Part shown: positions 9,478 through 53,946 of the stretch, piece by piece
Layout: the number at the start of each line of letters is the position of its first letter
How positions within the stretch are numbered: the first letter of the stretch is position 1
Origin: Syntrophomonadaceae bacterium
Lineage (GTDB): Bacteria; Bacillota; Dethiobacteria; DTU022
Assembly: GCA_007132095.1 (NCBI GenBank)
Contig: SLPH01000015.1
Location: 221-64,220 of the forward strand
Direction: 5' to 3'
Length of the DNA stretch: 64,000 nt
The notes under the pieces: model-generated
Told to the model about the DNA's origin: nothing
The model's database searches: none
Seen by the model: only the letters and a program-made list of their open reading frames with translations
Program-made: the position numbers and the translations under genes

Positions 9478-9498
9478 TAAAGAAGGAGGTTGCATGCA

Positions 9499-10431
9499 AT
9501 GGCCGTTAACATGAAGGGCAAAGATATAATTTCCATTCATGATCTCAGCCGGGAAGAAGTAGATCAGATCCTTGGTACCGCTGGAATCCTGAAAATGAAG
9601 CAAAAACTGGGCGAGATATATCATCCTTTAAAGGGGAAAAGCCTCGGTATGATTTTCCAGAAATCGTCAACCCGGACCAGGGTTTCCTTTGAGGTGGGGA
9701 TGTGGCAGCTGGGCGGCTATGCGTTATTTCTCAGCGCCGCCGATTTGCAGCTAAAACGCGGCGAAACTATAGCAGACACGGCCAGGAACCTGAGTCGCTA
9801 TCTGGACGGGATCATGATTCGCACTTACGACCATGAAGATGTGGTCCAGATGGCCAAATACAGCTCGGTTCCGGTAATTAACGGTCTGACTGATCTGCTC
9901 CACCCGTGCCAGGTACTGGCCGACCTTTTTACGATCCTGGAAAAGAAAAGAAAGCTGGAAGGCTTGAAACTGGCCTATATCGGCGATGGCAACAATATGG
10001 CTCATTCGCTTATGTTCGGAGGGGCTAAGGTGGGGATGCATGTGGTGATCTGCGCCCCTTCGGGATTCGAACCTGACCCTGAAATCACCAGGCTTTCCAG
10101 GCTTGATGCTGCCAGGACAGGTTCAACAATCACGATCCAGGATGATCCCAGGGCTGCCGTTGAAACTGCAGACATTATTTATACCGATGTCTGGACCAGC
10201 ATGGGTATGGAAGAGGAATACGAACAGCGTCTGAAAAGCTTTTCACGCTACCAGGTCAATAGCGAACTATTAGAAAAAGCGAAAGAAGATGCCCTCGTTA
10301 TGCACTGCCTGCCTGCTCACCGGGGCGAAGAGATTACCGACGAAGTGATAGAAGGCCATCGCTCCATCGTATTTGACCAGGCTGAAAACCGCCTGCACGT
10401 TCAGAAAGCAATAATGGCGCTGATCATGTAA
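9499..10431 (+). CDS. argF: Ornithine carbamoyltransferase
   Basis: All four OTCase motifs are present: STRTR, HPCQ, DVWTSMG and HCLPAHRGEE. I chose the ATG 9 nt after GGAGG. The stop lies 15 nt before the giant downstream gene. Confidence 0.8.
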   Translation: MAVNMKGKDIISIHDLSREEVDQILGTAGILKMKQKLGEIYHPLKGKSLGMIFQKSSTRTRVSFEVGMWQLGGYALFLSAADLQLKRGETIADTARNLSRYLDGIMIRTYDHEDVVQMAKYSSVPVINGLTDLLHPCQVLADLFTILEKKRKLEGLKLAYIGDGNNMAHSLMFGGAKVGMHVVICAPSGFEPDPEITRLSRLDAARTGSTITIQDDPRAAVETADIIYTDVWTSMGMEEEYEQRLKSFSRYQVNSELLEKAKEDALVMHCLPAHRGEEITDEVIEGHRSIVFDQAENRLHVQKAIMALIM

Positions 10432-10446
10432 TAGTGGGAGGTTTTT

Positions 10447-13400
10447 ATGGGAACTGTAGAACAGGACAGATCGGATCTACCTGCAATAGGGCTTGACATA
10501 GGTGTATTTTCATCAAAGGGAGTACTGATAAAAGACGGGAGAATTGATTATATAACCGTTCCTACAGCCGGGCGCCCGGCTGAGGCTGCCTGGGGCTGTT
10601 TAAGCGCCCTGCTCGGTAAAGAGCTTAGCGGCAAAGCCCGTATTGGTATAATGGGCCAGAACGGAAAACTTGTTGCCGGCATTATCGGGCTGCAGCCGGT
10701 CCTCGAAATAGAAGCATTGCAGACCGGGCTGGAAAGCCTGCAAATCGGGGCTGAGTATGTAATATCGCTTGGCCATGAGAATATGCATTACCTTGAGCTG
10801 GATGAAAAGGGACGGATTAAATTTTTTAACCGTAATGGCCAGTGCGCCGCCGGTAGCGGATCGTTTTGGTACCAGCAGGCGACCCGCATGGGCTATAATG
10901 ATCGCCAGCTCGCTGAAATTGCGGCCGAAGCGGAAACGGCAGTTCCTATTTCCGGGCGCTGCGCTGTTTTCGCCAAGTCGGACATGACTCACGCAATCAA
11001 CGAAGGCGCCACCCAAAGCGCTGTCTCAGCCGGTATGGCTGCCGCCCTGGTGGAAACGGTAATTACCGGGGTGGCTTTAAACAGGATGCAGGGGCCGGCC
11101 ACGCTTGCCCTCAGCGGCGGCGTGGCAAATAATAAAGCGGTGACCAAGTATCTCAGGGCCTTTGCCGAAAAAAATGGGATTAAAGTAATTATTCCAGACA
11201 AACATGAATATATAAACGCTGTTGGAGCCGCATTAAAGGGGACGCCGATTGATTTAGGCACCCTGAACGAGAACGTGCTGAAAACCCCAAAGTTTAAAAC
11301 CGACCAGCCCCTGCCTCCGCTGGATCCGGGGCTGGTCCACTACCTGGAAAATGATCAGGCAAGCCCTGAATTTGATTTAAGCCGGGTTTACCTTGGAGTT
11401 GACTGCGGATCGGTCTCAACCAAGTGCGTTTTGCTCGATCAGCAGGGCGAAAAAATTGGAGGGATTTACCTTCCCACAACCGGCCGTCCCGCCCTGCAGG
11501 TTTTGCAGCTAATTCGTCACGTTGCCGATCGCTATGGGAAAATGCTCGAAGGTTCGCCTATTACGGTCTGCACTACCGGTTCAGGCCGCTTTCTGTCCCA
11601 AAAGATTCTGAACGCCGAGTATGCTGTTGATGAAATAACCTGCCAGGCCGAAGGATTGAAATACCTCTTTCCTGATGAACAGGCCCTGGCAATTATTGAA
11701 ATCGGCGGAGAAGATTCAAAGTTTGTCCAACTTAAGGAAGGTATTTTATACGACTACAACATGAACCCGGTTTGCGCGGCCGGAACGGGAACGTTTTTGG
11801 AAAACCTGGCCGAACTGCTTGGCGTCAAGATCGACGGCGAGTTCTCCCAGAAGGCCTTTCAGGCAGAGTATGCGGTAGACCTCGGCGATATCTGCACACT
11901 TATATCCCAATCGATCCTGGCTTCCGCATCAGCCAGGGGCCTGCCGCTGAACGAACAGCTGGCCAGCCTTGCTTATTCATCGGCCCAAAACTATCTCAGT
12001 AAAACAGTTGATAAGCGGCCCCTGGAAGGAAAGATTGTTTTTGCCGGGGCTACGGCAAAAAACAGCGCCCTTGCTGCAGCTTTGGCTACGATCTGCGAAA
12101 ATGAGATCACCGTGTCTGCCGAACCGGAACTGACAGGAGCGCTGGGTTGTGCCCTGATGGCCAGGCAGCTATACCGGAAAGGGAAAAAAGGATTATACTC
12201 ATTCCGCAACCTTTCTGATATAAGGAAGTTTACCACCGATAAGCGGCCCTGCAAGGCCGATTGCATTCATGAACATAACTGTATTCTTAACATAATAACT
12301 TTTGCTGACGGAAACAGATTCATTTACGGCGATCGCTGCGGACGTTTTTCGGGCCTGGAAAGACGCAGCGACCATTACGAGCTGCCGGATTACTGCGCTG
12401 AACGCAATGGACTCCTGGCCGGATATGAAAATGAAAAGAAAGAGACGGGTCCGCTGGTCTGCATGGCCCGCAGCGGTCTCTACTATGAATACTTTCCTTT
12501 CTGGTCGGCTTTTTTCAACAAGCTGGGCTGCAGGGTCTCCCTTTCAAAGTATTCTACCGCCGAAACCCTGGAAAAAGGCAAGGTCAGCCTTGATTCAGAG
12601 ATGTGTTACCCTATGAAGGTTATAGTCGGCCATTATGCAGAGCTGCTTGAGGGCGACTGCGATTATATTTTTATACCCGAAGTTGTGGATATGGAAGCCC
12701 TGCCCTGGACCGATCTTTGGCCTCGCTCCTTTGTCTGTCCGCTGCTGCAAACCCTGCGCGGAACAGTGGTCAACTCCCTGGATATTGATGAAAATAGAAT
12801 TCTCTATGCCCAGTTAAATTACCGGGCCGGCCCCAGGGTGATCCGGGATCAGCTTAAGCCCCTTGCATTCGAAATACTTGGTCCCGATTACAGCGAAGCC
12901 AGATTTGAACAGGCCCTGGATAGCGCTTACAGCGCCTTAAATGAATTCCGCGGCGAGCTTGTCGTAGCCGCTGAAAGAGCCCTGGAAAGCCTGGCCGGCA
13001 ATACCGATAACGGAGCTGTTGTCTTCCTGGGGAGAAGCTATACGCTTTACGACGACTACATAGCCAAGAAATCGATGCACTATGCCAGGGAAAGCGGGCT
13101 CTTTTCGCTGCCCCACGAATATCTCTTTTACTATATGTCGGCCTGGATGAAAGGGGAAATTAAATCGGCCTTTCTTGATCGCTACAGGCAGGAATTTAAA
13201 GATTACCTTGAACGGCATATCGAGATCATGGAAAATATCTACCCGGCCCAGCTGCAAAGAATGCTTTCTGTGGTCCTGCTGGTTAACTTTCTTAACCTGA
13301 AAAACGGCGAAACCGGTTTACCCCGCCTCAACCTGATCTTTCTCGATCCGTTCAAATGCGGGCCTAATGCCATGATGCGCCACTACTTAAGCGGCCTTTG

Positions 13401-14790
13401 CAGCTACCTCCGCTTAACGATAGACGAGCATACTGCCGCCGCCGGGATGATAACCCGGCTTGAGGCTTTCAAAAATACCTGTCTCTCTAACACCAGCGTC
13501 AGGCAGATAGAGATGCATTCATCGAAAACATGCTCGGTTACCGATGAAAACTGGAACAAGATCCTGATCCCTGAGCCGACCAGGCACGCTGCTATATTTG
13601 CTGCGCTGTTCAGGAGCGCCGGCGTTGAGGCGGAGGTTATTCCCCGCAGCAAAACCGGCGACCTTTCTTTAGCCCGAAAATATGTAAACGGCGAGGAATG
13701 TCTTCCATTCCTGCAAAACCTGCAGGATTTCCTGGCGTACCTGAAAAGCGAGGTTGTAAGCGAAGAGAGCAGGCCGGTTTTCTTCCAGGGATGGGCCTGC
13801 GGCCCCTGTCGGTACGGTCTATATGCACCCACCCAGGCTTTGGCCATTAACAGGGCGGGATTTGGCGAGATGAGGGTCTGTGCGATTAAGTTTAGCGACG
13901 TTGCAAAGAGGTTTGGATATGGGTTTGTCCTCGGCTTTTACAGCGCGGTTTTAACGATGGATATTCTCTATAAACTGCTGCATCGCGTCCGGCCTTATGA
14001 AACGAAAAAAGGCGAAGCAGACCAGGTTTTTGAGCGATATACCAACAGGCTTATCGAAGAGGCGGAAAAATTCCGCTTCCGGTTAGCGGCTTTCCCGGGA
14101 GGCCGCTACAGGAAACCTTTTGAGACGCTTATTGGTGAAGCGGCAGAAGAATTCGCCAGGATCGAGCGAAAAAGCGGAGTCAAGCCGAGGATTCTCTTAA
14201 ACGGCGAATTCTACGTGCGCCTCGACGATCGTTGTAACCAATCTGTGATCGATAAAATTGAGGCAGCGGGAGGAGAAGTCTCACTGGCCCCTGCGACCGA
14301 GTTATTCGCCTACACTATACACATTGATTACCTTGAAGCCATCCATTCGTTCAGGATCAACCGCAGGCCGGGCGATTATTTCAAGCGCATTTTCTATAAG
14401 CAGCTGATCAAGGTTGCCCATCGCGATGAAGCCGCTTTACACAAAGCTGCAGGACCTTTGCTGAGGGGACTTGAAGAACCTTCACCCGAAGAGATCATGC
14501 AGAGAGCGCAAAAATATGTATCGCCCCACTATGGCGGTGAACCGCCGATGACCATAGGCAGGGCAGCTGCTTTTGCCAGGAGGGGGAAGGCTGCAGGAGC
14601 AATTTTTGTCGCCCCCTTTACCTGCATGCCGGCCTCTGTCGTTGAAGCCCAGCAGGGAAGCCTCCAGGAGGAGCTCGGTATACCTATGGTAACAGTTTAT
14701 TACGATGGTAAAGAGAACAGCAACCGTGACGAGCTGGTCGAAGGGCTGGTTTTCCAGGCCCGTCAGCGTATCGGGGCCGGAAAAGCTTAA
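10447..14790 (+). CDS. Giant fusion of two BadF/BadG/BcrA/BcrD-type (HgdC-like) acyl-CoA dehydratase activase ATPase domains with a long C-terminal region I think matches DUF2229 (distantly HgdA/B-like)
   Basis: 1447 aa. The N-terminal ~600 aa hold two actin-fold ATPase repeats (IGLDIGVFSSKG..., VYLGVDCGSVSTKC...). The remaining ~850 aa carry Cys motifs CPLLQTLRG, FKCGPNAMMRHY, GWACGPCRYG and FTCMPASVV. The name DUF2229 is from memory and unverified. Confidence 0.7.
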   Translation: MGTVEQDRSDLPAIGLDIGVFSSKGVLIKDGRIDYITVPTAGRPAEAAWGCLSALLGKELSGKARIGIMGQNGKLVAGIIGLQPVLEIEALQTGLESLQIGAEYVISLGHENMHYLELDEKGRIKFFNRNGQCAAGSGSFWYQQATRMGYNDRQLAEIAAEAETAVPISGRCAVFAKSDMTHAINEGATQSAVSAGMAAALVETVITGVALNRMQGPATLALSGGVANNKAVTKYLRAFAEKNGIKVIIPDKHEYINAVGAALKGTPIDLGTLNENVLKTPKFKTDQPLPPLDPGLVHYLENDQASPEFDLSRVYLGVDCGSVSTKCVLLDQQGEKIGGIYLPTTGRPALQVLQLIRHVADRYGKMLEGSPITVCTTGSGRFLSQKILNAEYAVDEITCQAEGLKYLFPDEQALAIIEIGGEDSKFVQLKEGILYDYNMNPVCAAGTGTFLENLAELLGVKIDGEFSQKAFQAEYAVDLGDICTLISQSILASASARGLPLNEQLASLAYSSAQNYLSKTVDKRPLEGKIVFAGATAKNSALAAALATICENEITVSAEPELTGALGCALMARQLYRKGKKGLYSFRNLSDIRKFTTDKRPCKADCIHEHNCILNIITFADGNRFIYGDRCGRFSGLERRSDHYELPDYCAERNGLLAGYENEKKETGPLVCMARSGLYYEYFPFWSAFFNKLGCRVSLSKYSTAETLEKGKVSLDSEMCYPMKVIVGHYAELLEGDCDYIFIPEVVDMEALPWTDLWPRSFVCPLLQTLRGTVVNSLDIDENRILYAQLNYRAGPRVIRDQLKPLAFEILGPDYSEARFEQALDSAYSALNEFRGELVVAAERALESLAGNTDNGAVVFLGRSYTLYDDYIAKKSMHYARESGLFSLPHEYLFYYMSAWMKGEIKSAFLDRYRQEFKDYLERHIEIMENIYPAQLQRMLSVVLLVNFLNLKNGETGLPRLNLIFLDPFKCGPNAMMRHYLSGLCSYLRLTIDEHTAAAGMITRLEAFKNTCLSNTSVRQIEMHSSKTCSVTDENWNKILIPEPTRHAAIFAALFRSAGVEAEVIPRSKTGDLSLARKYVNGEECLPFLQNLQDFLAYLKSEVVSEESRPVFFQGWACGPCRYGLYAPTQALAINRAGFGEMRVCAIKFSDVAKRFGYGFVLGFYSAVLTMDILYKLLHRVRPYETKKGEADQVFERYTNRLIEEAEKFRFRLAAFPGGRYRKPFETLIGEAAEEFARIERKSGVKPRILLNGEFYVRLDDRCNQSVIDKIEAAGGEVSLAPATELFAYTIHIDYLEAIHSFRINRRPGDYFKRIFYKQLIKVAHRDEAALHKAAGPLLRGLEEPSPEEIMQRAQKYVSPHYGGEPPMTIGRAAAFARRGKAAGAIFVAPFTCMPASVVEAQQGSLQEELGIPMVTVYYDGKENSNRDELVEGLVFQARQRIGAGKA

Positions 14791-16449: not shown

Positions 16450-16575
16450 CCAGACCATTATACGCCGCCCGGGCAGAAAAGTAAAGGGCCAAATTGCAGC
16501 GGTAAAAAGGAGGCCCTGACAGGATTCGACGGGGTGGTGTAGAATAGGTTTAGCATTTAAAGGAGGAAGCTGAAG

Positions 16576-17763
16576 ATGCAGAAACCGTTATCCGGAATTA
16601 AAGTAGTCGATCTTAGCCGTTTTATTGCCGGCCCTTACTGCACCATGAAACTGGGGGACATGGGGGCAGAGGTGATCAAAATTGAAACACCCGGTAAAGG
16701 CGACGACTCGCGCGCCCTTGGCCCCCCGTTCATCAATGGCGAGTCGGCCTACTACCTTTCGTTTAACCGCAACAAGAAAAGCCTTACCCTGAACTTACGT
16801 GAAGCTGAAGCAAAAGAAATCCTGATTAAACTGATCCGGGAAGCCGATATCCTGGTAGAAAATTTCCGGATCGGGGTTACGGCCAAAATGGGCCTGACTT
16901 ATGAAGACGTTAAGAAAATAAAAGAGGATATCATTTACTGTTCTATTACCGGGTACGGTCATAACAGCCCTTACCGGGAAAAGCCAAGTTTTGATGTAAT
17001 GATCCAGGGTGAAGCGGGGCTGATGAGTATTACCGGGTTTCCCGATGGTCCGCCGCAAAGGGTGGGCATAGCCATTGCCGATATAATGGGCGGATTCCAC
17101 GCTGTCGAAGGCATCCTGCTGGCCCTGCTCGTTCATGGCAGAACCGGAAAGGGCCAGTTTGTCGATGTTTCGCTGATGGATTCAATCATCGCTATTCTAA
17201 CTTACCAGGCCGGGCACTTTCTGGCCACAGGCGAAGCCCCGGAGCGTGTCGGCAACCGTCACCCCATGATAACCCCTTACGAAAGCTTTGAAACCGCTGA
17301 CGGCTACGTTATTTTTGCCGTCGGAAACCAGCGCCTCTGGGAGAGTTTTATCTCCAGGCTGGGCCGGGAAGACCTGGGCCTGGATTCGCGTTTTGCCGAC
17401 ATGCAGGGAAGAAACAGCCATCCGGCGGATTTGAAAGAAATCCTCGAAGATATCACCCGTCAGAAGACTACGGAAGAATGGGTAGAGATCATGGAAGGGG
17501 CCGGTGTGCCCTGCGGCAGGATTCGCACCCTGGACCAGGTGCTAACCGATCCCCATGTCGATGCCAGGGAGATGGTGCTTGAGAAAGAACATCCCCTGGC
17601 CGGAAAGATCAAACTGACGGGAGTACCGACCAAACTCTCCCTGACGCCGGGAGAAGTTATGGCTGCGCCGCCAACCCTGGGCCAGCATAATGAGGAGATC
17701 CTGCTGAAGCTTGGTTACGAGAAAAAGGAGATCGCCAGGCTGACTGAAGGAAGCATTATTTAA
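16576..17763 (+). CDS. Family III CoA-transferase (CaiB/BaiF / alpha-methylacyl-CoA racemase superfamily)
   Basis: N-terminus LSGIKVVDLSRFIAGPYCTMKLGDMGAEVIKIE is diagnostic of the CaiB/BaiF family. Confidence 0.8.
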   Translation: MQKPLSGIKVVDLSRFIAGPYCTMKLGDMGAEVIKIETPGKGDDSRALGPPFINGESAYYLSFNRNKKSLTLNLREAEAKEILIKLIREADILVENFRIGVTAKMGLTYEDVKKIKEDIIYCSITGYGHNSPYREKPSFDVMIQGEAGLMSITGFPDGPPQRVGIAIADIMGGFHAVEGILLALLVHGRTGKGQFVDVSLMDSIIAILTYQAGHFLATGEAPERVGNRHPMITPYESFETADGYVIFAVGNQRLWESFISRLGREDLGLDSRFADMQGRNSHPADLKEILEDITRQKTTEEWVEIMEGAGVPCGRIRTLDQVLTDPHVDAREMVLEKEHPLAGKIKLTGVPTKLSLTPGEVMAAPPTLGQHNEEILLKLGYEKKEIARLTEGSII

Positions 17764-17839
17764 GCGTTTTAAGCCTGCTGCTTACAAATAATGAACCTGC
17801 CGCTTAAATGCGCCAACGGCAGGAAAAGGGGTTATTCGG

Positions 17840-18793
17840 GTGAGAATTGTCGCAGCGCTGGGCGGAAATGCGCTTTTAAAGTCTGGCCAGAAAGGAACGG
17901 CCGAAGAGCAATACGCCAACATTGAAACGGCCTGCCGGCAGCTGGTCCGGATTGCAGCTGAACATGAACTGGTTATTACCCACGGCAACGGGCCCCAGGT
18001 AGGAAGAATCAATTTGCAAAATGAAGCGGCCCGGGAAGAAACCCCCACGCTGCCGCTTGATATTTGCGGAGCTATGTCGCAGGGTCAGATCGGTTACATG
18101 CTCCAGCAGGGGCTCAGCAAAGAGCTGTCCAGGCAGGGCCTGGAACTGGATCCGGTTACGGTTGTGACCAGGATTCTGGTTTGCAAAGATGACCCAACCC
18201 TGGTCAGCCCCGGCAAGCCGATCGGATCCTATTTCAGCCGGAAAGAGGCGGAAGCCCGGGCCAGGGACCTGGGGGAAAAATGGATTGAAGATAAAACCAG
18301 GGGCGGCTGGCGCAAAGTGGTGGCATCGCCCAGGCCGGTATGGATTGTTGAAGAAAGGGCGATCAAGACCCTGCTCGAAAACCGGTTCCTCGTGATTGCC
18401 CTGGGCGGGGGAGGAATTCCAGTGCTGGGAAGCGAACAGGGAGGTTACCAGGGCGTTGAAGCGGTAGTAGACAAAGATCTGGCCGGGGGTATCCTTGCCG
18501 ATGCGGTGGGAGCGACCATCTTTCTCATTCTCACCGATGTGCCCGCAGTCTATCTTGATTACGGTAAGCCGACGCAGCGCCCCTTAGGAACAGTCAGCCT
18601 GGACGAGATGGTCAGCTATTCCAGGGAAGGTCACTTTGCAGCCGGAAGCATGGGACCCAAGGTTGAAGCGGCTGTTAAGTTTGCCCGCGAAAGAGGGCAT
18701 AAAACGATAATTACTTCGCTGGAACTGGCCCTGGAAGCGATTGAAGGCAGGGCCGGAACCTGCCTGGCAGCAAGCGGCTGCGGCGAGGCATAA
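17840..18793 (+). CDS. arcC: Carbamate kinase (YqeA/ArcC-like)
   Basis: MRIVAALGGNALL ... VITHGNGPQVG is canonical for carbamate kinase. 317 aa. It sits directly upstream of YqeB/YqeC, as in yqeA-yqeB-yqeC loci. Confidence 0.8.
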   Translation: MRIVAALGGNALLKSGQKGTAEEQYANIETACRQLVRIAAEHELVITHGNGPQVGRINLQNEAAREETPTLPLDICGAMSQGQIGYMLQQGLSKELSRQGLELDPVTVVTRILVCKDDPTLVSPGKPIGSYFSRKEAEARARDLGEKWIEDKTRGGWRKVVASPRPVWIVEERAIKTLLENRFLVIALGGGGIPVLGSEQGGYQGVEAVVDKDLAGGILADAVGATIFLILTDVPAVYLDYGKPTQRPLGTVSLDEMVSYSREGHFAAGSMGPKVEAAVKFARERGHKTIITSLELALEAIEGRAGTCLAASGCGEA

Positions 18794-18841
18794 GGAATAT
18801 TTACAAGTAAGATGACATGAAGAAGCTGAAAGGAGCAGGCC

Positions 18842-19669
18842 ATGAACACTGCGCTGCCCGGGCCGGTTTTGATCAAAGGCGCCGGCGACCTGGCCTCAGG
18901 GGTCGCACACCGTCTTTACCGGGCCGGCTTTGATATAATTATGCTTGAGCTGCCCCAGCCCCTGGTTGTCAGGCGGACGGCATCCTTTGCCGAAGCGGTA
19001 TTCAGGGGCGAAACCGTCCTGGAAGAGGTGAAGGCAAGGTTTTGCCCGACAGCGGAGAGCGCTGACCGAATTCTGCAGCGAAAAGAGATCCCTGTTATTG
19101 TTGACCCGGCGGGGCAGTCACGATTGCGCTTTAATCCGCCGGTCCTTATAGACGCTATTATGGCGAAGCGGAATACAGGCACTGCTCTTAGCGATGCTCC
19201 CCTTGTTATAGGTCTTGGGCCCGGTTTCTCAGCGGGAAGCGATGTTCACGTTGTTGTTGAAACAATGCGGGGCCACAACCTGGGCCGGGTCATTTATGAA
19301 GGAGAGGCTGAAGCTAATACTGACCTACCCGGCGAAGTTGGCGGAAAAGATCTGGAAAGGCTGCTGAGATCTCCCGGGGAAGGCAGATTTGAGCCGCTCT
19401 GTTCAATCGGCGATCTTGTGGAAAAGGGGCAGTTAGTGGCAAAAGTGGGCGCCGGTGAAATCATTGCCGCAACGGGGGGATTGATCAGGGGTCTTCTCTA
19501 TCCCGGGATCCTGGTAAAGCCCGGCATGAAAGTGGGCGATATTGACCCTCGCGGCAGTTCTGTTGACTGGAGAACCATATCCGATAAAGCAAGATCGATT
19601 GGCGGCGGCGTATTAGAGGCTGTAATGCACCATTTCTTTTTCCGGGAGATTGACAGGGAGGGGTCATAA
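18842..19669 (+). CDS. Selenium-dependent molybdenum hydroxylase system protein, YqeB family (short form)
   Basis: 275 aa with an N-terminal Rossmann-like IKGAGDLASGVAHRLYRAGF. The size and N-terminal motif fit the YqeB family as I recall it. Context: flanked by carbamate kinase and YqeC. Confidence 0.55.
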   Translation: MNTALPGPVLIKGAGDLASGVAHRLYRAGFDIIMLELPQPLVVRRTASFAEAVFRGETVLEEVKARFCPTAESADRILQRKEIPVIVDPAGQSRLRFNPPVLIDAIMAKRNTGTALSDAPLVIGLGPGFSAGSDVHVVVETMRGHNLGRVIYEGEAEANTDLPGEVGGKDLERLLRSPGEGRFEPLCSIGDLVEKGQLVAKVGAGEIIAATGGLIRGLLYPGILVKPGMKVGDIDPRGSSVDWRTISDKARSIGGGVLEAVMHHFFFREIDREGS

Positions 19670-21048
19670 TGAGAACCATGTCCCTGGCAGCCTGTCTAGA
19701 CCTGAAGAGAAACAGGGTCGTTTCCTTTTACGGCGCCGGGGGGAAAACCACCCTTATGCACCGCCTCGCTTCTGAACTGGCGGCGCTTGGTAAAAGAGTG
19801 CTGGTTACGACAACAACCAGGATCTACCCCCATCCGGCCCACAGGATAGTTTTCGCAAATAATGCAGGGCAGGTACGGGACATGCTGCAGGCGGGGCTTG
19901 CCAAAGAGCGCATCTGTATTGCCGCTGCCGGCATAGATGAAGGTAAGCTTATCGGTTTTGAGCCTCGCCTGATTGACGAACTGAAAGAACTGGACGACTT
20001 TTTTATTCTCGTCGAAGCAGATGGTTCGAAAGGTAAATCGCTCAAAGGTTTTGCCTTTCACGAACCGGTTATTCCGGCTTCATCCGATTTGATTGTTCCG
20101 CTGGCAGGGCTTGACGCCCTGGGCGGAACCCATGATCACGAAACAGTCCACCGCCTCCCGGAGCTGCTGGCCCTCACCGGGGCCAAAGAGGGAGAGATGA
20201 TCGGGGAAAGGCATATTGCCTCATATTTTAACCACGCTGTACGTCTGGGTTCCGCCCAGGCGCCTGGAGCGGCAATTATTCCGGCTTTAAACAAGAGCGA
20301 TCTTCTAACTAACCCGGCTTTTGCAACCTGGACCATTTCCTCCTTACTGACAGATGTAAAAATGATTAAATCGGTGATCGCTGTCCGGGTGGCAGGGGAA
20401 ATGCCGGTAAAAGCAATCTTTCCTTTTATAGGCGCGGGACCGGAAATTAAAATAACCGCGGTTATACTCGCCGCAGGAAGGGCCGCCAGGATGGGTAGAG
20501 ATAAACTCTCTCTTCAATTCGGAGAAAAAACAATCCTCGAACAGACCCTGGATAATGTAAGGTCAGGCGGAATAGAAGATATTGTTATAGTGATTCAGCC
20601 GGGCAGCCACTGGCCGGCAAAAATCAATTATGCCGGGGTCAGGTTTACCGAAAACCCGGATTATCATACCGGGCAGGCCAGTTCGGTCAAAGCCGCATTA
20701 AATGCGCTTGATCCGTATACACAGGCGGCCATGTTCGTTCTGGCTGACCAGCCGATGGTCGAGCCGGACATATACCGGCAGCTCGCAGGCAGCTACCGGG
20801 GCGCTCTCAAGCCCGTTACCTGCCCGGTTTTTAACGGCGCCAGGGGCAACCCGGCCATATTCGACCGTATTCTGTGGCCGGAACTGGCTCTGCTGAGCGG
20901 TGACACCGGGGGAAGGGCCATTATAAGCGAGCTTCCGGGCGCAATGATCGATCCTGTGCCGGTACGGTCTCCTTCGGTGCTTCAAGACATAGACACCGGC
21001 GAAGACTATAAACAACACCTTTCCGGCAGCAATAACCGGAAAACATAA
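19669..21048 (+). CDS. Fusion: YqeC-type P-loop accessory protein (N-term) + MocA/MobA-like molybdenum cofactor cytidylyl/nucleotidyl-transferase (C-term)
   Basis: N-terminal P-loop SFYGAGGKTTLMHRLA and a TTTTRIYP segment are YqeC-like. The C-terminal half carries ITAVILAAGRAARMGRDKL, the MobA/MocA glycine-rich NTP-transferase motif. The start overlaps the YqeB stop. Confidence 0.6.
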   Translation: MRTMSLAACLDLKRNRVVSFYGAGGKTTLMHRLASELAALGKRVLVTTTTRIYPHPAHRIVFANNAGQVRDMLQAGLAKERICIAAAGIDEGKLIGFEPRLIDELKELDDFFILVEADGSKGKSLKGFAFHEPVIPASSDLIVPLAGLDALGGTHDHETVHRLPELLALTGAKEGEMIGERHIASYFNHAVRLGSAQAPGAAIIPALNKSDLLTNPAFATWTISSLLTDVKMIKSVIAVRVAGEMPVKAIFPFIGAGPEIKITAVILAAGRAARMGRDKLSLQFGEKTILEQTLDNVRSGGIEDIVIVIQPGSHWPAKINYAGVRFTENPDYHTGQASSVKAALNALDPYTQAAMFVLADQPMVEPDIYRQLAGSYRGALKPVTCPVFNGARGNPAIFDRILWPELALLSGDTGGRAIISELPGAMIDPVPVRSPSVLQDIDTGEDYKQHLSGSNNRKT

Positions 21049-21186: not shown

Positions 21187-21750
21187 ATGGTCGGGAGTTT
21201 GTTTAAAAGCCTGGCTCGATTTTGGGCAACAGATCTGCGTTACCGGTGGAGTAAGATCCGGCACCGCGGTTCGCTGCTCAGTACTAACGTCCGGGAGGAT
21301 CTCTACCCGGAAACCGTTCCTGCCCTTAAAGAGACAGCAGTGGAGCTTCATAAAAACTTCGTTTACGTGCGTGACGGTTTTTTAAGGCTTTACGACAGCA
21401 TCGATACTCCGGCCAACTGCTGGAACCGCGCCTTTAATCCCGGCCCGCTGAAAGACGATTGCGACGGGTTCCATTCAGCGCTCTACTGGGCATCAGGGAA
21501 GCACTTTGAGTGTTATCTCGTAACAATTGTCTCGACCGATCTAGTAAATAGCCACACCTCTCTCTGGCTGCCCGGTGTGGGGATTATCGATTATACCCGC
21601 CTCTATGAAGGCAGCAACCTTGATCAACTGGTCGCAAAACTCCAAAAACGCCGCAAAATCCCGGGCATAATCCTGATCGAACTTTCAGATTGGAACGGAG
21701 TGAAATGGTCCAGTCATAAAACTTATCCCGGTTGGTGTAATATTAACTGA
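21187..21750 (+). CDS. Hypothetical protein, possibly a transglutaminase-like Cys-His-Asp fold
   Basis: 187 aa. DDCDGFHSALYW resembles the TGase-like C-x-x-[FY]-x-[SA] motif, with a later His (NSHTSLW) and Asp (IIDY). Assignment is tentative. Confidence 0.4.
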   Translation: MVGSLFKSLARFWATDLRYRWSKIRHRGSLLSTNVREDLYPETVPALKETAVELHKNFVYVRDGFLRLYDSIDTPANCWNRAFNPGPLKDDCDGFHSALYWASGKHFECYLVTIVSTDLVNSHTSLWLPGVGIIDYTRLYEGSNLDQLVAKLQKRRKIPGIILIELSDWNGVKWSSHKTYPGWCNIN

Positions 21751-21860
21751 GCATCTAGCCTTATTATATGAGCCTTGTGACCATATGGTATAATATAAGA
21801 ACAAGACTGAGTTTCATCAAGCCTTGAATAGTTATTTTTGCGAAAGAGAGGAGAAGAGCT

Positions 21861-22040
21861 ATGGTTAAAGATTACTCATGGCCCGATATATCTGATACTG
21901 CTTCAATCGCAAAAATTATTACCGTGGTGGCAATAACGGCAATTGCATACTTTGTTGTATCAAGCGGAGAGGGCCCGCCGATTACTTACGAGGTTGACCT
22001 CCCCGTGTTGTTTTTTCCGGGCTCCTGGTCGCTTCCATGA
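21861..22040 (+). CDS. Small hypothetical membrane protein (59 aa)
   Basis: ATG 8 nt after GAGAGGAGAAGAG. One hydrophobic helix (IAKIITVVAITAIAYFVV). Below the 60-aa cutoff of the ORF track. Confidence 0.3.
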   Translation: MVKDYSWPDISDTASIAKIITVVAITAIAYFVVSSGEGPPITYEVDLPVLFFPGSWSLP

Positions 22041-22179
22041 TCTTTATTCCCCGGTAAAAATCTAAATTTAAGTATTTGGCAAAATAAATCCTATCGGTAA
22101 ATTTACAGTTACAGAAGGCATAGTAAAAATCAAAAAAGGTTTCGAAGACTTTATTGTCCCCGAAACCTCTTTGTCTTTC

Positions 22180-22255
22180 TGGTGAGCCATCTAGGATTCG
22201 AACCTAGGACACCCTGATTAAAAGTCAGGTGCTCTACCAACTGAGCTAATGGCCC
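22180..22255 (-). tRNA. tRNA-Lys (anticodon TTT)
   Basis: The reverse complement folds as a cloverleaf: GGGCCAT acceptor, CTTTTAA anticodon loop, GGTTCGAATCC T-arm, encoded CCA. Confidence 0.9.
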
Positions 22256-22256
22256 A

Positions 22257-22345
22257 TGGTGGTGGAGAGGACTGGATTCGAACCAGTGAAGGCGCTGCCA
22301 GCAGATTTACAGTCTGCCCCCTTTGGCCAACTTGGGTACCTCTCC
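22257..22345 (-). tRNA. tRNA-Tyr (anticodon GTA)
   Basis: Reverse complement: GGAGAGG acceptor, CTGTAAA anticodon loop, long variable arm, GGTTCGAATCC T-arm, CCA. Confidence 0.85.
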
Positions 22346-22356
22346 ATGTCTATCTG

Positions 22357-22431
22357 TGGAGCCGACGAAGGGACTCGAACCCCCAACCTGCTGATTACAA
22401 ATCAGCTGCTCTTCCGTTGAGCTACGTCGGC
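22357..22431 (-). tRNA. tRNA-Thr (anticodon TGT)
   Basis: Reverse complement: GCCGACG acceptor, TTTGTAA anticodon loop, GGTTCGAGTCC T-arm, CCA. Confidence 0.9.
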
Positions 22432-46019: not shown

Positions 46020-47561
46020 TCAGGAACCATTAATCCGGACAAGCTTGTTAAGCCCGTTAAGGTAAGCCTTGACGCTGGCCTCAATGATATCAGTGCTTAC
46101 ACCCCTGCCGGTTATGGTGCGATCCTGGTAGGACATTTCAACTTTGACTTCACCGAGAGCATCGCGCCCCTGGGTAACGGCATCTATTTTATACTTATTC
46201 AGGCTGATAAAGAGACCGGTGATCTTGTTAACAGCGTTATAGGCAGCATCAATCGGCCCGGATCCGGTAGCCACTTCTTCAATCAGCGTACCGTCTTCTT
46301 TCTTCAGGCGAACAATGGCAGCCGGCACGCTCATGGTTCCGCTGATCGTCTGCAAAAAGTCAAGTTTATAGCGCGGTTCTGAAGTTGTGAGGTGATCAAG
46401 AACCAGCGCTTCAAGATCTTCCGGGTAAACCTCTTTCTTTTTATCGGCAAGTTCGACAAAATGTTTATAGATCGTTTTCAGCTGGCTGTCATCGAGCGAA
46501 AAGCCGATTTTCTTCAAGGCATCTAATACGGCATGCCGCCCCGAACGGGCCGTCAGGCACATCTTGGCCGCCTGGCCGCCTACCAGGGCGGCGTCGATTA
46601 TTTCATATGTTTCTTTTTTCTTCAGCACCCCGTCCTGGTGGATGCCGGAGGAGTGGGCAAACGCGTTTGAACCAACGACAGCTTTATTGACCGGAACCGA
46701 AATGCCGGTCAGTTTGCTGACCAGCCTGCTGGTGCGGTATATTTCCGGAAAATTAATATCCGTGTGGTAGGGGAAATGATTGCCCCGGATCCTGAGGGCG
46801 ACGGCGATCTCTTCCAGGGCAGCATTACCGGCTCTTTCCCCGATACCATTAATATTGCATTCGATCTGGCGGGCCCCGTTTTTCACCGCCTCAAGGGAAT
46901 TGGCTACGGCAAGGCCGAGATCGTTATGACAGTGAACGCTGATAACCACTTTGTCTATGCCCTTTACATTTTCCCGCAGTCTTCTAATCAGGGCCCCAAA
47001 TTCTTCAGGAACGGCATAGCCAACCGTGTCGGGAATGTTGAGTGTGGTAGCGCCGGCCTTGATTACAGCTTCAAGGAGCCTGTACAGGTATTCTTCACGC
47101 GCCCTTGTAGCGTCCTCGGGAGAGTATTCAATGTCGTCGGTAAAGCGCTTCGCATACCTGACGGCGGCAACTGCCTGTTCCATAAGCGCTTCCGGGCTCT
47201 TTTTCAGCTTGTGTTCCATATGGATATCAGACGCGGCCAGAAAAACGTGGAGACGGCTTCTTTCGGCGTCTTTAATCGCTTCCCAGGCTGCGTCTATGTC
47301 TTCCTGGACTGTGCGGGCCAATCCGCAGATAACAGGACCTTTCACTTCTCTTGCTATGGACTGAACCGCTTTTAACTCACCCGGCGAGGAAATAGGGAAC
47401 CCCGCCTCGATAACATCTACCCCGAGGCGGGCCAGCTGTCTTGCCACCTCTAATTTTTCATCGTGGTTGAGCCGTGCCCCCGGAGTTTGCTCGCCGTCGC
47501 GCAGGGTGCTGTCAAAGAGATAAATCTTTTCCGAACCTGTCTTTTCCATTGTCTTTTCCAT
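46020..47561 (-). CDS. leuA: 2-isopropylmalate synthase (long form with C-terminal regulatory domain)
   Basis: LFDSTLRDGEQTPG and HCHNDLGLAVANSLEAV, 513 aa with the LeuA dimerisation/regulatory C-terminus. The start may be the internal MEKTGSEK. Confidence 0.85.
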   Translation of the reverse strand: MEKTMEKTGSEKIYLFDSTLRDGEQTPGARLNHDEKLEVARQLARLGVDVIEAGFPISSPGELKAVQSIAREVKGPVICGLARTVQEDIDAAWEAIKDAERSRLHVFLAASDIHMEHKLKKSPEALMEQAVAAVRYAKRFTDDIEYSPEDATRAREEYLYRLLEAVIKAGATTLNIPDTVGYAVPEEFGALIRRLRENVKGIDKVVISVHCHNDLGLAVANSLEAVKNGARQIECNINGIGERAGNAALEEIAVALRIRGNHFPYHTDINFPEIYRTSRLVSKLTGISVPVNKAVVGSNAFAHSSGIHQDGVLKKKETYEIIDAALVGGQAAKMCLTARSGRHAVLDALKKIGFSLDDSQLKTIYKHFVELADKKKEVYPEDLEALVLDHLTTSEPRYKLDFLQTISGTMSVPAAIVRLKKEDGTLIEEVATGSGPIDAAYNAVNKITGLFISLNKYKIDAVTQGRDALGEVKVEMSYQDRTITGRGVSTDIIEASVKAYLNGLNKLVRINGS

Positions 47562-47607: not shown

Positions 47608-47880
47608 AAAAAAAACGCCTCCAAGAGACGAAAATTATGCTTTCCGTGATACCACTCTTCTTGGCAGCATGACGTCTACCGCCCACTCTTTATGATAACG
47701 GAAGTCTCCGGCCAGCCCTACTTGCGAAGTGGAAAGGTGTTGCCTTTCCTGCTTTCAGGTGGCGGCTCCCGGAGGAGTTCGCCGGCTTTTTCATACCGTT
47801 TTGCACCTGCCAACGGTTCTCTGAAAATGAATGGGCCGATTACTGGTTCCGGTCATCGCCTTTTCAATATTAAACTGATA
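47608..47880 (-). promoter_or_regulatory. Candidate T-box leader (leucine-specific) upstream of leuA
   Basis: Read on the minus strand. A stem-loop ggcg-AACUCCUCCGGGAG-ccgcc exposes a CUC leucine codon. A T-box-like AGAGUGGUAUCACGG sits immediately 5' of a terminator hairpin CGUCUC-UUG-GAGGCG followed by U8. The leader is about 315 nt. Confidence 0.45.
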
Positions 47881-51620: not shown

Positions 51621-52850
51621 TTGAACATCGGTATTTTTACAGACAGCTATCGTCCTTACACCAGCGGAGTGGTAAGATCGATTGAGCTCTTTTCCCGCGA
51701 ATTTAACAGCCGTGGCCATAAAGTATATATATTCGGCCCCGATTATCCACTGCTGCCCTCTACCAAGGAAGATCGGGTATACCGCTTTGCCTCGGTGCCT
51801 GCCCCCACATTTCCTGAGTTCTCCCTGGCTATTCCCATATCTGCTCAGCTGGGGCAAACGATCAGGGAAATAGATTTGGATATTATTCATGTCCAGTCCC
51901 CATTCCTGCTGGGCAGGCTTGGAGCCAGATCTGCCAGGAAACACCGTTTACCCCTGGTCTTTACCTTTCACACTCTTTATGATCAGTACGTTCACTACTT
52001 CCCAATCGCTGAAAAAACATCGAAGCAGATTATCCAGCGTATGGGCAGGGAATTTTGCAACCGCTGCAATGCAGTTATAGCCCCTTCCCGCCTGGTAGCC
52101 GGTTACTTGCAGCGGATCGGCGTGGAAACGGAAATACATACTATCCCAACCGGAATTGACCTTGACGAATTCAAAGACTTGAACAGCTCCTGGCTGCAGG
52201 ATAATCATGGTGTTAAGCCCGAAGAAAAAGTGCTTCTCTTTGTCGGCAGGCTGGGTCAGGAAAAAAACGTCTCTTTCCTGCTGAAGTCCTTTAAAAAAAT
52301 TCTTTCCCGGCAGCCTCAAACCCGCCTGGTGCTCGTGGGTAAGGGCCCCCAGGAGGCTCGCTTGCGCAAACAGTGCAGGCAGCTCGGTATTTTAGATAAT
52401 GTAATATTTACCGGTGTTCTTCCCCGGCAGAAAATAGTTCACTGTTTTGCCAGCTCGCATATATTTACCTTCCCTTCGGTGACTGAAACCCAGGGGATTG
52501 TTATTGGCGAAGCGATGGCCACCGGCCTTCCCGTGGTTGCCATCAGGGCCTTTGGGCCGGCTGAAATGGTTAGCGACGGAGAAGACGGCTTTCTCACCGA
52601 GCCGAACCTGAACGCCTTTACCGATGCGGTTTTGAAACTTCTGGCCGATGATGAGCTCTACAAGAGCATGAGTGCCAGGGCCAAAGAAAACGTCCAGAAT
52701 ATTTCACTAAGCCGCTGCGCCGACCGGATGCTTGATCTTTACAGCGACCTGATCGACAGAAACGTAGCCGCACCCAGGCTTTGGCCCTATAAGAATACTG
52801 GAAAAGGGCCTGTAAAGACTTGGCTTGATACATTCAAGGAGGATAACTGA
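51621..52850 (+). CDS. Family 4 glycosyltransferase (GT4, GT-B fold)
   Basis: The N-terminal IGIFTDSYRPYTSGV acceptor domain and C-terminal donor domain with the GEAMATGLPVVA region and an E-x7-E-like context fit GT4. TTG start. Confidence 0.75.
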   Translation: MNIGIFTDSYRPYTSGVVRSIELFSREFNSRGHKVYIFGPDYPLLPSTKEDRVYRFASVPAPTFPEFSLAIPISAQLGQTIREIDLDIIHVQSPFLLGRLGARSARKHRLPLVFTFHTLYDQYVHYFPIAEKTSKQIIQRMGREFCNRCNAVIAPSRLVAGYLQRIGVETEIHTIPTGIDLDEFKDLNSSWLQDNHGVKPEEKVLLFVGRLGQEKNVSFLLKSFKKILSRQPQTRLVLVGKGPQEARLRKQCRQLGILDNVIFTGVLPRQKIVHCFASSHIFTFPSVTETQGIVIGEAMATGLPVVAIRAFGPAEMVSDGEDGFLTEPNLNAFTDAVLKLLADDELYKSMSARAKENVQNISLSRCADRMLDLYSDLIDRNVAAPRLWPYKNTGKGPVKTWLDTFKEDN

Positions 52851-52854
52851 GCAA

Positions 52855-53946
52855 ATGAATACGATTGAAAAAGCTTTAATGCACGGTCTTTTCGTCCACC
52901 TGCATCACAATATCGATAAGGCAATCGATTTTAGCGTATTTAAAAAGCTTAATGAAAAGGTGGCCGAAAATTCACCGGGTCGCTTGCTGGTTGGTCCCGA
53001 TGCCAATGATGACGCTGCAGTTTTCCAGCTGCCCGGCGATGATGGCCTGGTAGCGGCAAAAATGGAAAGCCACTGTTCACCCTGTGTACCCAGGCCCTAC
53101 GATAGCGCCGCCACCGGTGCCGGGGGAGCCATGCGCGATGTTGTTGCCATGGGCGCCCGCCCCCTTTTCCTGCTTGATTTTATCGGCACCCGCCCCCTGG
53201 ACCAGGAGGTTCTGGTCGGCCCCTGCGGTTTTAAGGGTGAATGCACCTGCGGCGAATGTTTAACCATGACCAGCGGCGAGCGCGTTGACCTGATTGTCAG
53301 GGGGATCAGGGATATGTGTGAAACCATGGGCGTATATGTTGTCGGAGGCGGCCTCTCCACTTCTTTTAGTGATATAGTGCCGGCTGTTGTCGCCGCTGTA
53401 ATCGGCAGGATGGTCGTTGATCAGCCTCTCACAAAACCGGCAAAAAATGAAGGCGATCGGTTAATCATTGTCGGCGAAACCGACAACGACGGAAATGATA
53501 CCTTATACAGGGCCGGTCTGGCAGATGTAATGCGCCCGGCTGTAGCCCTTTTTGATGAAGAGAAAAAGACCATGGAAGCAGCTCTCGCCGCTATTAAGAC
53601 AGGGAAAATAAACGCCTGCTCTGATCTTGGCGCTGCCGGCGTCGGCGCCGCAGTTAGCGAGTCGGTCCGCTTTGGCGGTCTCGGCGCCCTTGTAGATCTC
53701 TCCCTGGTTCCGCTTAAAAAGGCAGGGTTGAGCCCGGAAGAAATCCTGATCTGTGAAACCCAGGCCCGTATGCTCTTCCAGGTTAATCCGGGCGATGTAG
53801 ATACCGTAATCGCCGCTGTACGCGGCAAGGGTGCCCCTGTCGCAGAAATCGGGGAGATAACCGGCAGCAAAGAAGCTGTATTTATGCACGGGGAAAGTAG
53901 AATTGCCACTGTTCCGCACCAGCCGCCCCGGGAACTGTTTGAGTAA
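52855..53946 (+). CDS. AIR-synthase-related (PurM-superfamily) protein of unknown function
   Basis: GPDANDDAAVF and the GAGGAMRDVVAMGARPLFLLDFIG region show a PurM/HypE/ThiL-like fold. ATG 12 nt after AGGAGG. The gene is tightly linked to the GT4 gene. Confidence 0.65.
   Translation: MNTIEKALMHGLFVHLHHNIDKAIDFSVFKKLNEKVAENSPGRLLVGPDANDDAAVFQLPGDDGLVAAKMESHCSPCVPRPYDSAATGAGGAMRDVVAMGARPLFLLDFIGTRPLDQEVLVGPCGFKGECTCGECLTMTSGERVDLIVRGIRDMCETMGVYVVGGGLSTSFSDIVPAVVAAVIGRMVVDQPLTKPAKNEGDRLIIVGETDNDGNDTLYRAGLADVMRPAVALFDEEKKTMEAALAAIKTGKINACSDLGAAGVGAAVSESVRFGGLGALVDLSLVPLKKAGLSPEEILICETQARMLFQVNPGDVDTVIAAVRGKGAPVAEIGEITGSKEAVFMHGESRIATVPHQPPRELFE

Follow-up and report, generated by a model that had tools for sequence, protein, structure and literature searches.

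The four genes at 16576-21048 of the window (the whole 64-kb stretch of DNA that was analysed) probably combine accessory factors for a molybdopterin-cytosine-dinucleotide (MCD) cofactor with catabolic enzymes, and are best described as the reduced form of a PucR-type operon whose client hydroxylase is probably encoded elsewhere. YqeB and a YqeC::MocA fusion would be the accessory factors, serving the MCD cofactor of an XDH-family hydroxylase. Gene sets of this YqeB/YqeC/MocA type serve to mark the "selenium cofactor trait". The set described here is real, but it consists of ordinary Moco helper genes for XDH-type enzymes. Nothing in the window is categorically new, and it is the surrounding comparative data that sharpen testable hypotheses.

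The four-gene unit and its products

The unit is co-directional and lies on the + strand. It is opened by a family III CoA-transferase (16576..17763; PF02515, 445 bits), correctly named by the earlier note as an adjacent gene. A carbamate kinase (CK) of 317 aa follows (17840-18793; TIGR00746, 381.3 bits against a cutoff of 358.25), then a short-form YqeB of the EF2563 (HP1) family (275 aa, 18842-19669; TIGR03309, 339.9 bits against 220) and the YqeC::MocA fusion, a single uninterrupted ORF of 459 aa (19669-21048). The three ORFs in 17840-21048 are present exactly as described earlier, and the profile matches to YqeB, YqeC and MobA/MocA-type families that had been proposed as a check were all obtained. 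A candidate sigma-70-like promoter (CTGACA-18-TAGAAT, 10 of 12 consensus positions), identified by its consensus match alone, is located 5' of the unit at 16516..16545 on the + strand. No convincing intrinsic terminator was found on this strand before 21048. A GGAGGGG ribosome-binding site precedes the start of the fusion, which overlaps the stop codon of yqeB by a single base (TAATG), and the two genes are translationally coupled. The 187-aa "TGase-like" neighbour at 21187-21750 gives zero Pfam or NCBIfam matches and was rejected as a member of the cassette, no relative of it adjoining the fusion in the compared loci.

The match of YqeB to TIGR03309 covers profile positions 1-255 of 256 and lies above the equivalog cutoff. 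The protein is 51% identical to residues 271-524 of E. coli YqeB and lacks the N-terminal XdhC half of the latter; its GMKVGDIDPRG motif is invariant. In the AlphaFold model (pLDDT 90), an N-terminal Rossmann-like domain is followed by a C-terminal biotinyl/lipoyl-type barrel. The combination of a Rossmann-like domain with a predicted carrier-like domain sharpens the hypotheses that can be tested. A 2024 study of C. difficile described both YqeB and YqeC as having no predicted domain and the role of YqeC as uncertain.

The YqeC domain occupies residues 17-213 of the fusion (19717..20307, +; TIGR03172, 158.5 bits against 73.05; PF19842, 144 against 27.6) and is 39% identical to its E. coli counterpart. 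It contains a Walker A motif (G22-x-GGKT27), E116-x-x-G119 and N208-K-S-D211. The Walker A motif is invariant across 30-36 homologs, and the domain belongs to the YqeC family. Fold and motifs place it among the SIMIBI-class P-loop NTPases, together with CooC, UreG, HypB and MeaB, which deliver metallocentres. The best structural matches are SRP54/FtsY/FlhF, not G3E proteins, and identity to the SIMIBI metallocentre NTPases and SRP-type GTPases is only 11-18%. The NKxD-like motif suggests that the nucleotide may be GTP. The Asp of this motif varies, with INRFS at this place in E. coli YqeC.

The nucleotidyltransferase domain follows at residues 264-449 (20458..21015, +; PF12804, 128 bits against 27, residues 264-422) and is 28% identical to E. 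coli MocA. It contains the motifs LAAGxAxRMG, GQASS, DQP and DIDT, with L267-A-A-G270...R274-M-G conserved, and its best matches in a PDB profile search are the MocA/MobA-related structures 3d5n, 2we9 and 2waw (E from 1e-40 to 1e-43). The domain has the N-terminal nucleotide-binding signature and is closer to MocA (TIGR03310, 151.3 bits) than to MobA (TIGR02665, 38.6 bits, with all MobA models at or below this value). As the TIGR03310 score is below the equivalog cutoff of 186.45 while the general NTP_transf_3 model is passed, the domain is called MocA-like rather than a proven MocA equivalog, and its specificity for CTP is presumed.

Probable derivation from a larger catabolic operon

The closest homologs of three of the window genes belong to PucR-controlled operons of uncultured Bacillota (L001, L100/L104 and L102), with the gene order CK-AllF-AllG-XDH-YqeB-(XdhC)-YqeC::MocA. 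The complete form of such an operon would be CK-AllF-(cyclase)-AllG-XDH(FAD, FeS, Mo)-(MFS)-YqeB-(MoeA-like, XdhC)-YqeC::MocA. One 26-kb contig holds near-best homologs of the kinase (P0265, 59%), YqeB (P0135, 62%) and the fusion (P0011, 42%) in the order CK-AllF-cyclase-AllG-XDH-MFS-YqeB-MoeA-like-XdhC-fusion. PucR accompanies CK-AllF-AllG-XDH in L102 and AllF-AllG-XDH-YqeB-fusion in L001. The fused YqeC::MocA is common to these operons and the window, and the downstream neighbourhood is shared with L100 and L014, where MTAP is found 5-9 kb downstream of the fusion, as it is here. The window differs in lacking PucR, AllF, AllG, the three XDH subunits, the MFS transporter, the MoeA-like gene and XdhC, and in having the CoA-transferase upstream.

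The window thus appears to have kept the first and last genes of the operon, and the middle part, including the hydroxylase, would have been lost. This deletion scenario is built on comparisons at 40-65% identity, and the genes might also have been assembled independently. In sister soda-lake lineages, the fusion is found alone between DinB/YolD and MTA-salvage genes, with no YqeB within 10 kb. The CoA-transferase is upstream of the kinase in all near-identical assemblies and neighbours the fusion in only one of 80 other species. Its scores are below the cutoffs of all NCBIfam equivalogs, the best being succinate-glutarate CoA-transferase (362 against 750). The enzyme is catabolic and does not belong to the maturation machinery.

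The earlier observation that no hydroxylase is nearby holds across the whole 64 kb. Of the 60 ORFs of at least 150 aa, 53 were considered genes (the other seven being overlapping antisense or alternative-frame ORFs), and Pfam or NCBIfam scans of these 53 detected no XDH-family domain. In addition, phmmer searches of all window ORFs of at least 70 aa with the XDH FAD, FeS and Mo subunits, E. coli XdhA and XdhD and an XdhC probe gave no match. Hydroxylase, XdhC, selD and other Moco genes are absent from the 64-kb window, so that the XDH-family enzyme beside the accessory genes, which would define an SDMH locus, is not found within it. Three candidates for related functions were rejected. The AIRS/AIRS_C protein at 52825-53946 is PurL-like and not SelD (selD model, 48.7 bits against a cutoff of 125). 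The models for YgeW give only 68-76 bits with the protein at 9490-10431, which is an ordinary ornithine carbamoyltransferase (430-451 bits). The gene at 147-1412, which is cysteine-desulfurase-like, belongs to the VC1184 type (429 bits) and not to the E. faecalis EF2568 type (148 bits, below the cutoff of 377), and its score for the selenocysteine lyase SclA is likewise below the cutoff (79 against 525); the gene is 16 kb away from the cassette, to which no link is established.

By combining these data, it is possible to outline how the accessory proteins might act. The MocA domain, judging from its homologs, would convert Mo-MPT and CTP into MCD. YqeC would gate or drive the hand-over of the fresh MCD, with YqeB and an XdhC-type chaperone as recipients. 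The labile ligand, Se (or S), might be installed at this stage, before the cofactor is inserted into the apo-hydroxylase.

Selenium and the role of YqeC

The short-form YqeB, YqeC and a MobA-related transferase co-occur in E. faecalis as EF2563 (HP1), EF2564 (HP2) and EF2569, as they do here. This set has been described as the "third selenium utilisation trait" (Zhang 2008; Haft & Self 2008), and fusions among its members have been noted (PMC2432076). In E. faecalis, its neighbours are selD, genes for a SirA-like protein and a class-V aminotransferase, XdhC and the Mo enzyme, none of which is near the window cassette. The selenium dependence of the window cassette may be presumed from family membership alone.

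The YqeC-MocA fusion is not new; it is common and was noted previously. Fusions of MobA-related and XdhC proteins to HP1/HP2 (YqeB/YqeC) were described by Zhang et al. 2008 (PMC2432076), who made the same functional inference, and both halves of the fusion already carry names in the JGI and NCBI annotations. YqeC and MocA are fused in 73 of the 80 species loci inspected and are split but adjacent and co-directional in the other 7. The earlier suggestion that the fusion is a Rosetta-stone hint for a role of YqeC at the level of cofactor nucleotide addition is reasonable, although it had already been made. One locus (L047) has a triple YqeB::YqeC::MocA fusion. Together with YqeC::MocA and the XdhC::YqeB of E. 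coli (Haft & Self 2008, PMC2276186), it makes a network of fusions that connects all four modules. Hundreds of species have a SIMIBI-class NTPase physically joined to the putative MCD-forming enzyme, and at least one has YqeB joined to it as well. Among the 80 loci, 47 have YqeB within 10 kb of the fusion (27 of the 41 with full flanks) and 41 have an XDH Mo subunit there (25 of the 41 with full flanks).

These arrangements bear on a rather unlikely alternative, in which selenium plays no part. YqeC::MocA would then be a general module for MCD synthesis and delivery to ordinary (sulfido) XDH-family enzymes, with YqeC as a MobB-like, nucleotide-dependent adaptor. Neither YqeB nor XDH is near the fusion in 27 of the 80 loci, and the sister lineages hold the fusion alone in the same slot. 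Furthermore, the fusion partner of YqeC is a nucleotide-adding enzyme and not a selenium enzyme, and homologs of HP2 (YqeC) are present in four organisms lacking SelD (Zhang et al. 2008, PMC2432076). In C. difficile, deletion of yqeB phenocopies deletion of selD on xanthine and urate, whereas deletion of yqeC has no clear phenotype (PMC11448449). The latter result suggests that the contribution of YqeC may be auxiliary. On the other hand, the fusion in the window is translationally coupled to YqeB, YqeB family members have been reported only in selD-positive genomes (PMC2276186), and the triple fusion occurs. Where the fusion stands alone, YqeB may be located elsewhere in the genome.

In the bis-MGD branch, a Moco nucleotidyltransferase and a small SIMIBI-type P-loop NTPase are likewise paired or fused as MobA-MobB (including bifunctional proteins, NCBIfam NF011056), which can be regarded as a functional analogy to YqeC::MocA. 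The domain order in bifunctional MobA/MobB is reversed, with MobA at the N-terminus, and this branch uses a different nucleotide and serves another family of enzymes. As a tentative extension of this comparison, YqeC might be a nucleotide-gated (probably by GTP) delivery partner of MocA that is not specific for selenium, the counterpart of MobB/MobA in the MCD branch. In the Syntrophomonadaceae-like lineages of soda lakes, a single chromosomal slot could then have been reduced stepwise from the full operon to kinase, YqeB and fusion, and then to the fusion alone. The module might thus be the indispensable core, independent of YqeB, for hydroxylases encoded elsewhere.

Decay, the E. coli parallel and assembly

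A different view of the locus is that the hydroxylase was lost from the genome altogether and that the leftover accessory genes are non-functional relics on their way to being lost. The hydroxylase and AllFG genes are indeed missing at the window locus and present there in relatives, and the sister lineages have also lost YqeB and the kinase from the slot. In a relative at 74% identity (L099), which keeps CK-YqeB-fusion, the fusion is only 74% identical compared to 87-91% for its neighbours, and is thus evolving faster. Decay is nevertheless improbable. All ORFs are intact in six assemblies, every invariant motif is kept in the window genes, and the lone fusion of the sister lineages is full-length too, at 37-43% identity. 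The dN/dS values against L099 are 0.107 for the kinase, 0.107 for YqeB and 0.243 for the fusion, at dS of 0.5-0.7, which indicates purifying selection on all three genes. As the genes are maintained in this way, a client hydroxylase is probably encoded elsewhere in the genome. Purifying selection can maintain accessory genes that are located far from any hydroxylase.

The earlier note regarded kinase, YqeB and YqeC as a conserved trio, in the same order as yqeA-yqeB-yqeC of E. coli, that matures selenium-dependent hydroxylases with the kinase included. This has very little probability. The map order CK, YqeB, YqeC, MocA does equal that of E. coli K-12 (b2874-b2877; PMC2276186, Table 1), and CK-YqeB-fusion is kept in L099. 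The three accessory families and an adjacent carbamate kinase are found in the xdh/ygf purine island of E. coli as yqeB-yqeC and mocA (ygfJ). However, the strands there are + for yqeA, - for yqeB, - for yqeC and + for mocA, so that the trio is not co-directional in E. coli. In E. coli, yqeA is convergent with yqeB and not co-transcribed, whereas the window kinase is co-directional with YqeB. The E. coli mocA is a gene of its own and divergent from yqeC, whereas the two form one polypeptide here. XdhABC, XdhD, YgfK and others are within 15 kb in E. coli, compared to none in the 64 kb of the window. The parallel is weak.

Nor is the kinase specifically YqeA-like, as had been proposed. It is about as close to YqeA (42%, 216 bits) as to the other two E. 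coli paralogs, YbcF (44%, 219 bits) and YahI (42%, 201 bits), and orthology to YqeA is not indicated. Its use as a marker of the selenium trait also fails, since a carbamate kinase adjoins the fusion in only one of the 80 loci. The nearest homologs of the window kinase (65% and 59%) stand at the start of CK-AllF-AllG-XDH operons that are under PucR control and of the purine/oxalurate catabolic type. YqeA itself has been found experimentally to be the catabolic, ATP-yielding partner of YgeW, using YgeW-derived carbamoyl phosphate (bioRxiv 10.1101/2025.04.24.650524). The window kinase (carbamoyl phosphate + ADP -> ATP) acts as a partner in catabolism and is not a cofactor-maturation factor, and in annotation a carbamate kinase adjoining these genes should not be taken as one.

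That an assembly error or frameshift created a false fusion is hardly conceivable. The 459-aa, in-frame ORF and the four-gene arrangement were recovered in six independent assemblies (three NCBI MAGs, one ENA assembly and two Logan runs) that differ by 5-9 nt across 4473 nt, and all of the best 120 of 1302 database cluster matches (E <= 1e-10) are fused, as are the 73 loci mentioned above. Full-length relatives of the fusion were found in at least 584 species genomes by an alignment-based scan, a scan with the single protein as query having given no matches. In all seven split loci, the ORFs of YqeC and MocA share a frame and are interrupted by stop codons between them, with several stops in two of the loci. 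Selenocysteine at the junction was rejected, the stops being a mixture of TAA, TAG and TGA, all in the non-conserved linker. The common frame of the split loci probably reflects a ranking bias of tblastn.

Organization and spread of the YqeC::MocA fusion

The ORF listing and HMM scans place four genes on the plus strand between 16576 and 21048: a family III CoA-transferase (16576-17763), a carbamate kinase (CK, 17840-18793; TIGR00746, 381 bits against a cutoff of 358), a 275-residue YqeB (18842-19669; TIGR03309, 340 bits against 220; no match in the Pfam scan) and a 459-residue YqeC::MocA protein (19669-21048). The latter consists of a YqeC domain (residues 17-213; TIGR03172, 158 bits against 73; PF19842) and a MobA/MocA-type nucleotidyltransferase domain (residues 264-449; PF12804, 128 bits), on which the MocA model TIGR03310 scores 151 bits, under its cutoff of 186, and the MobA models at most 39 bits. 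The ATG of the fusion overlaps the yqeB stop codon (TAATG) and is preceded by a GGAGGGG site. A promoter-like site is found ahead of the unit at 16516-16545, and a scan for plus-strand terminators gave none that was convincing before 21048. From its sequence, the 16576-21048 region looks like a single operon. Within the spacer between the CoA-transferase and CK genes (17764-17839) lies a 7-bp inverted repeat (CCTGCCG...CGGCAGG), whose loop is 14 nt long and which lacks a T-run; according to the scan it is not a terminator, and it could have a regulatory role.

The fusion described in the earlier note is genuine. The same arrangement with an intact 459-residue ORF is present in three soda-lake MAGs from NCBI (GCA_003563115.1, GCA_007123165.1 and GCA_007127995.1), one ENA assembly and two Logan runs, which differ from the window by 5-9 nt over 4.5 kb, and the CK-YqeB-fusion order is kept in a 74%-identity relative. 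Both PF19842 and PF12804 occur in all 120 matches listed, out of 1302 at E <= 1e-10; these proteins are about 450 residues long (range 424-653), and both halves are already named by some annotation sources. When species-representative genomes were scanned with an alignment, at least 584 species proved to encode a full-length relative. Nearest to the window protein are those of Syntrophomonadaceae MAGs; next come Dethiobacter, Desulfatiglans, many Anaerolineae, Acidobacteriota, one cyanobacterium and one ANME-1 archaeon. The genes are fused in 73 of the best 80 loci, and yqeC and mocA are adjacent and co-directional in the other seven. Fusions of HP1 and HP2 (YqeB and YqeC) to MobA-related and XdhC proteins were described by Zhang et al. 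2008 (PMC2432076), who inferred a functional linkage, and XdhC::YqeB fusions were noted by Haft & Self 2008 (PMC2276186). The YqeC::MocA fusion is thus not unusual.

In all seven split loci (L026, L030, L031, L034, L045, L046 and L055) yqeC and mocA share a frame and are kept apart by one to three stops within the linker. The shared frame is probably a bias of the search ranking; it is also what a recent fusion or fission through loss or gain of stop codons would look like.

The fusion can be larger still. A Chloroflexota MAG (Go_Eff_bin_125, JAGNBF010000020.1; L047:8732-11062) encodes YqeB::YqeC::MocA in one 777-codon ORF (TIGR03309, 312 bits; TIGR03172, 175 bits; TIGR03310, 156 bits). Downstream of it are genes for a carbamate kinase, a YgeY-family hydrolase and a carbamoyltransferase, which echo the E. 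coli ygeW-ygeY-yqeA neighbourhood. In a Thermoflexales MAG (L083:1629-3821), YqeC::MocA carries an extra C-terminal HAD-IIA phosphatase domain (TIGR01457-like, 187 bits).

The missing hydroxylase and the origin of the arrangement

The statement that no hydroxylase of the xanthine dehydrogenase (XDH) family is encoded nearby was borne out. Neither the Pfam and NCBIfam searches on the large ORFs nor the phmmer searches using XDH subunits, E. coli XdhA and XdhD and one XdhC probe detected a gene for the XDH family, XdhC, selD, YgeW or Moco synthesis anywhere in the 64 kb. Among the best 80 loci, each from another species, 47 have YqeB and 41 an XDH Mo subunit no more than 10 kb from the fusion, and 27 have neither nearby. 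CK and the family III CoA-transferase are each found near the fusion once. An orphan location of the fusion is therefore common and the adjacency of CK rare.

The minus-strand gene at 147-1412, 16 kb from the cassette and on the opposite strand, encodes a class-V aminotransferase that resembles cysteine desulfurases and belongs to the VC1184 type (TIGR01976, 429 bits against 352); it is not of the EF2568 or SclA type found with selenium-cofactor loci. A stand-alone 373-residue AIRS/AIRS_C protein is encoded at 52825-53946, following genes for PGA_cap and a GT4 glycosyltransferase. It is not SelD and not ThiL, and its similarity is to the N-terminal half of PurL (176 bits, well short of the cutoff).

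The dN/dS values between the window and the 74%-identity relative are 0.107 for CK, 0.107 for YqeB and 0.243 for the fusion (dS 0.48-0.70), and all invariant motifs are retained. Selection maintains the three genes, and this favours a client enzyme encoded elsewhere over decay.

By combining the loci of relatives, it is possible to suggest how the arrangement arose. In L102, a CK with 65% identity to that of the window heads the operon PucR | CK-AllF-AllG-XDH(FAD, FeS, Mo). One 26-kb contig (L104 and L100) reads AllH, permease, PucR | CK-AllF-cyclase-AllG-XDH x3-MFS-YqeB-MoeA-like-XdhC-YqeC::MocA, with the MTA-salvage gene MTAP about 5 kb farther downstream; each of the three window genes has a near-best homolog on this contig. 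L001 has PucR | AllF-AllG-XDH-YqeB-fusion, and L014 has XDH-YqeB-fusion 8.6 kb upstream of MTAP-MtnA. The window genes stand upstream of the same MTAP-MtnA-amidohydrolase-SurE-RtcB block. These layouts suggest that the window keeps the first and last genes of a PucR-type CK...XDH...YqeB...fusion operon, without the middle. The operon context of its closest homologs would explain the adjacency of CK.

In sister soda-lake lineages (L004-L009, L011-L013) a lone fusion occupies the slot that YolD/DinB and the MTA-salvage genes flank, and the upstream thiolase-OTCase-1450-aa activase-YolD-DinB synteny is common to them and the window. GCA_003554395.1, SLRT01, SKMK01 and SKXC01 are examples of sister MAGs in which the fusion stands alone. 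Part of this synteny, a block of thiolase, ornithine carbamoyltransferase (OTCase) and a 1447-residue protein with two BcrAD/BadFG activase ATPase modules and DUF2229 (9490-14790; also L004-L013 and L090-L093), is tightly kept in all Syntrophomonadaceae-like relatives; it is odd to find an OTCase flanked by a thiolase and a giant acyl-CoA dehydratase activase. In the stretch that separates the cassette from the MTA-salvage genes (21187-22431), the window has a lineage-specific 187-residue ORF with no family match and a minus-strand tRNA-Thr/Tyr/Lys cluster; the sister lineages carry PfkB, AdoHcy hydrolase and amidohydrolase genes at this place. This section of the slot looks like a hot spot of rearrangement.

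Comparison with E. coli and a possible maturation pathway

The map order in E. coli K-12 is yqeA, yqeB, yqeC, mocA, and to that extent the proposed likeness to the E. coli trio holds. The genes there are not co-directional, however: yqeA is on the plus strand, yqeB and yqeC are on the minus strand with yqeC transcribed first, and mocA is on the plus strand, divergent from yqeC. E. coli YqeB is a 541-residue XdhC::EF2563 fusion, whereas the window YqeB aligns only with its C-terminal half (51% identity). The kinase is not YqeA-like in particular. The window CK is 44% identical to YbcF, 42% to YqeA and 42% to YahI, and it is therefore a generic carbamate kinase. YqeA itself is a catabolic enzyme, making ATP from YgeW-derived carbamoyl phosphate in urate degradation (bioRxiv 10.1101/2025.04.24.650524).

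The MocA half matches crystal structures of MocA/MobA-related proteins (E ~1e-40 to 1e-43) and keeps the motifs LAAGxxxRMG, GQ(A/S)SS, DQP and DIDT; it would convert Mo-MPT and CTP to molybdopterin cytosine dinucleotide (MCD). When the fusions XdhC::YqeB, YqeC::MocA and YqeB::YqeC::MocA are considered as well, an assembly line is the most economical model. What the analysis shows is folds, motifs and gene linkage, and from there we infer the individual steps: 1) MocA would make MCD; 2) YqeC would gate its transfer through NTP binding or hydrolysis; 3) YqeB and XdhC would keep the cofactor during installation of the labile Se (or S) ligand and would then insert it. The C-terminal domain of the window YqeB has a fold like the biotinyl/lipoyl carrier barrel; residues 213-237 of the protein include an invariant lysine, K230, in GMKVGDIDPRG. 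YqeB also has a conserved cysteine, Cys68.

The observation in the earlier note thus stands and its interpretation does in part; the interpretation makes too much of the novelty and of the kinase's role. The cassette is an accessory-gene set of a known, already annotated kind from an uncultured soda-lake Bacillota lineage. Its remaining interest is in the reductive series within a single slot of the chromosome and in how YqeC and YqeB are classified structurally; these could inform experimental work on the maturation pathway. Elsewhere in the window, a T-box leader on the minus strand (47621-47865, 120.7 bits) precedes a 2-isopropylmalate synthase-like gene (46020-47561), beside LexA; it is ordinary and supports the Bacillota origin.
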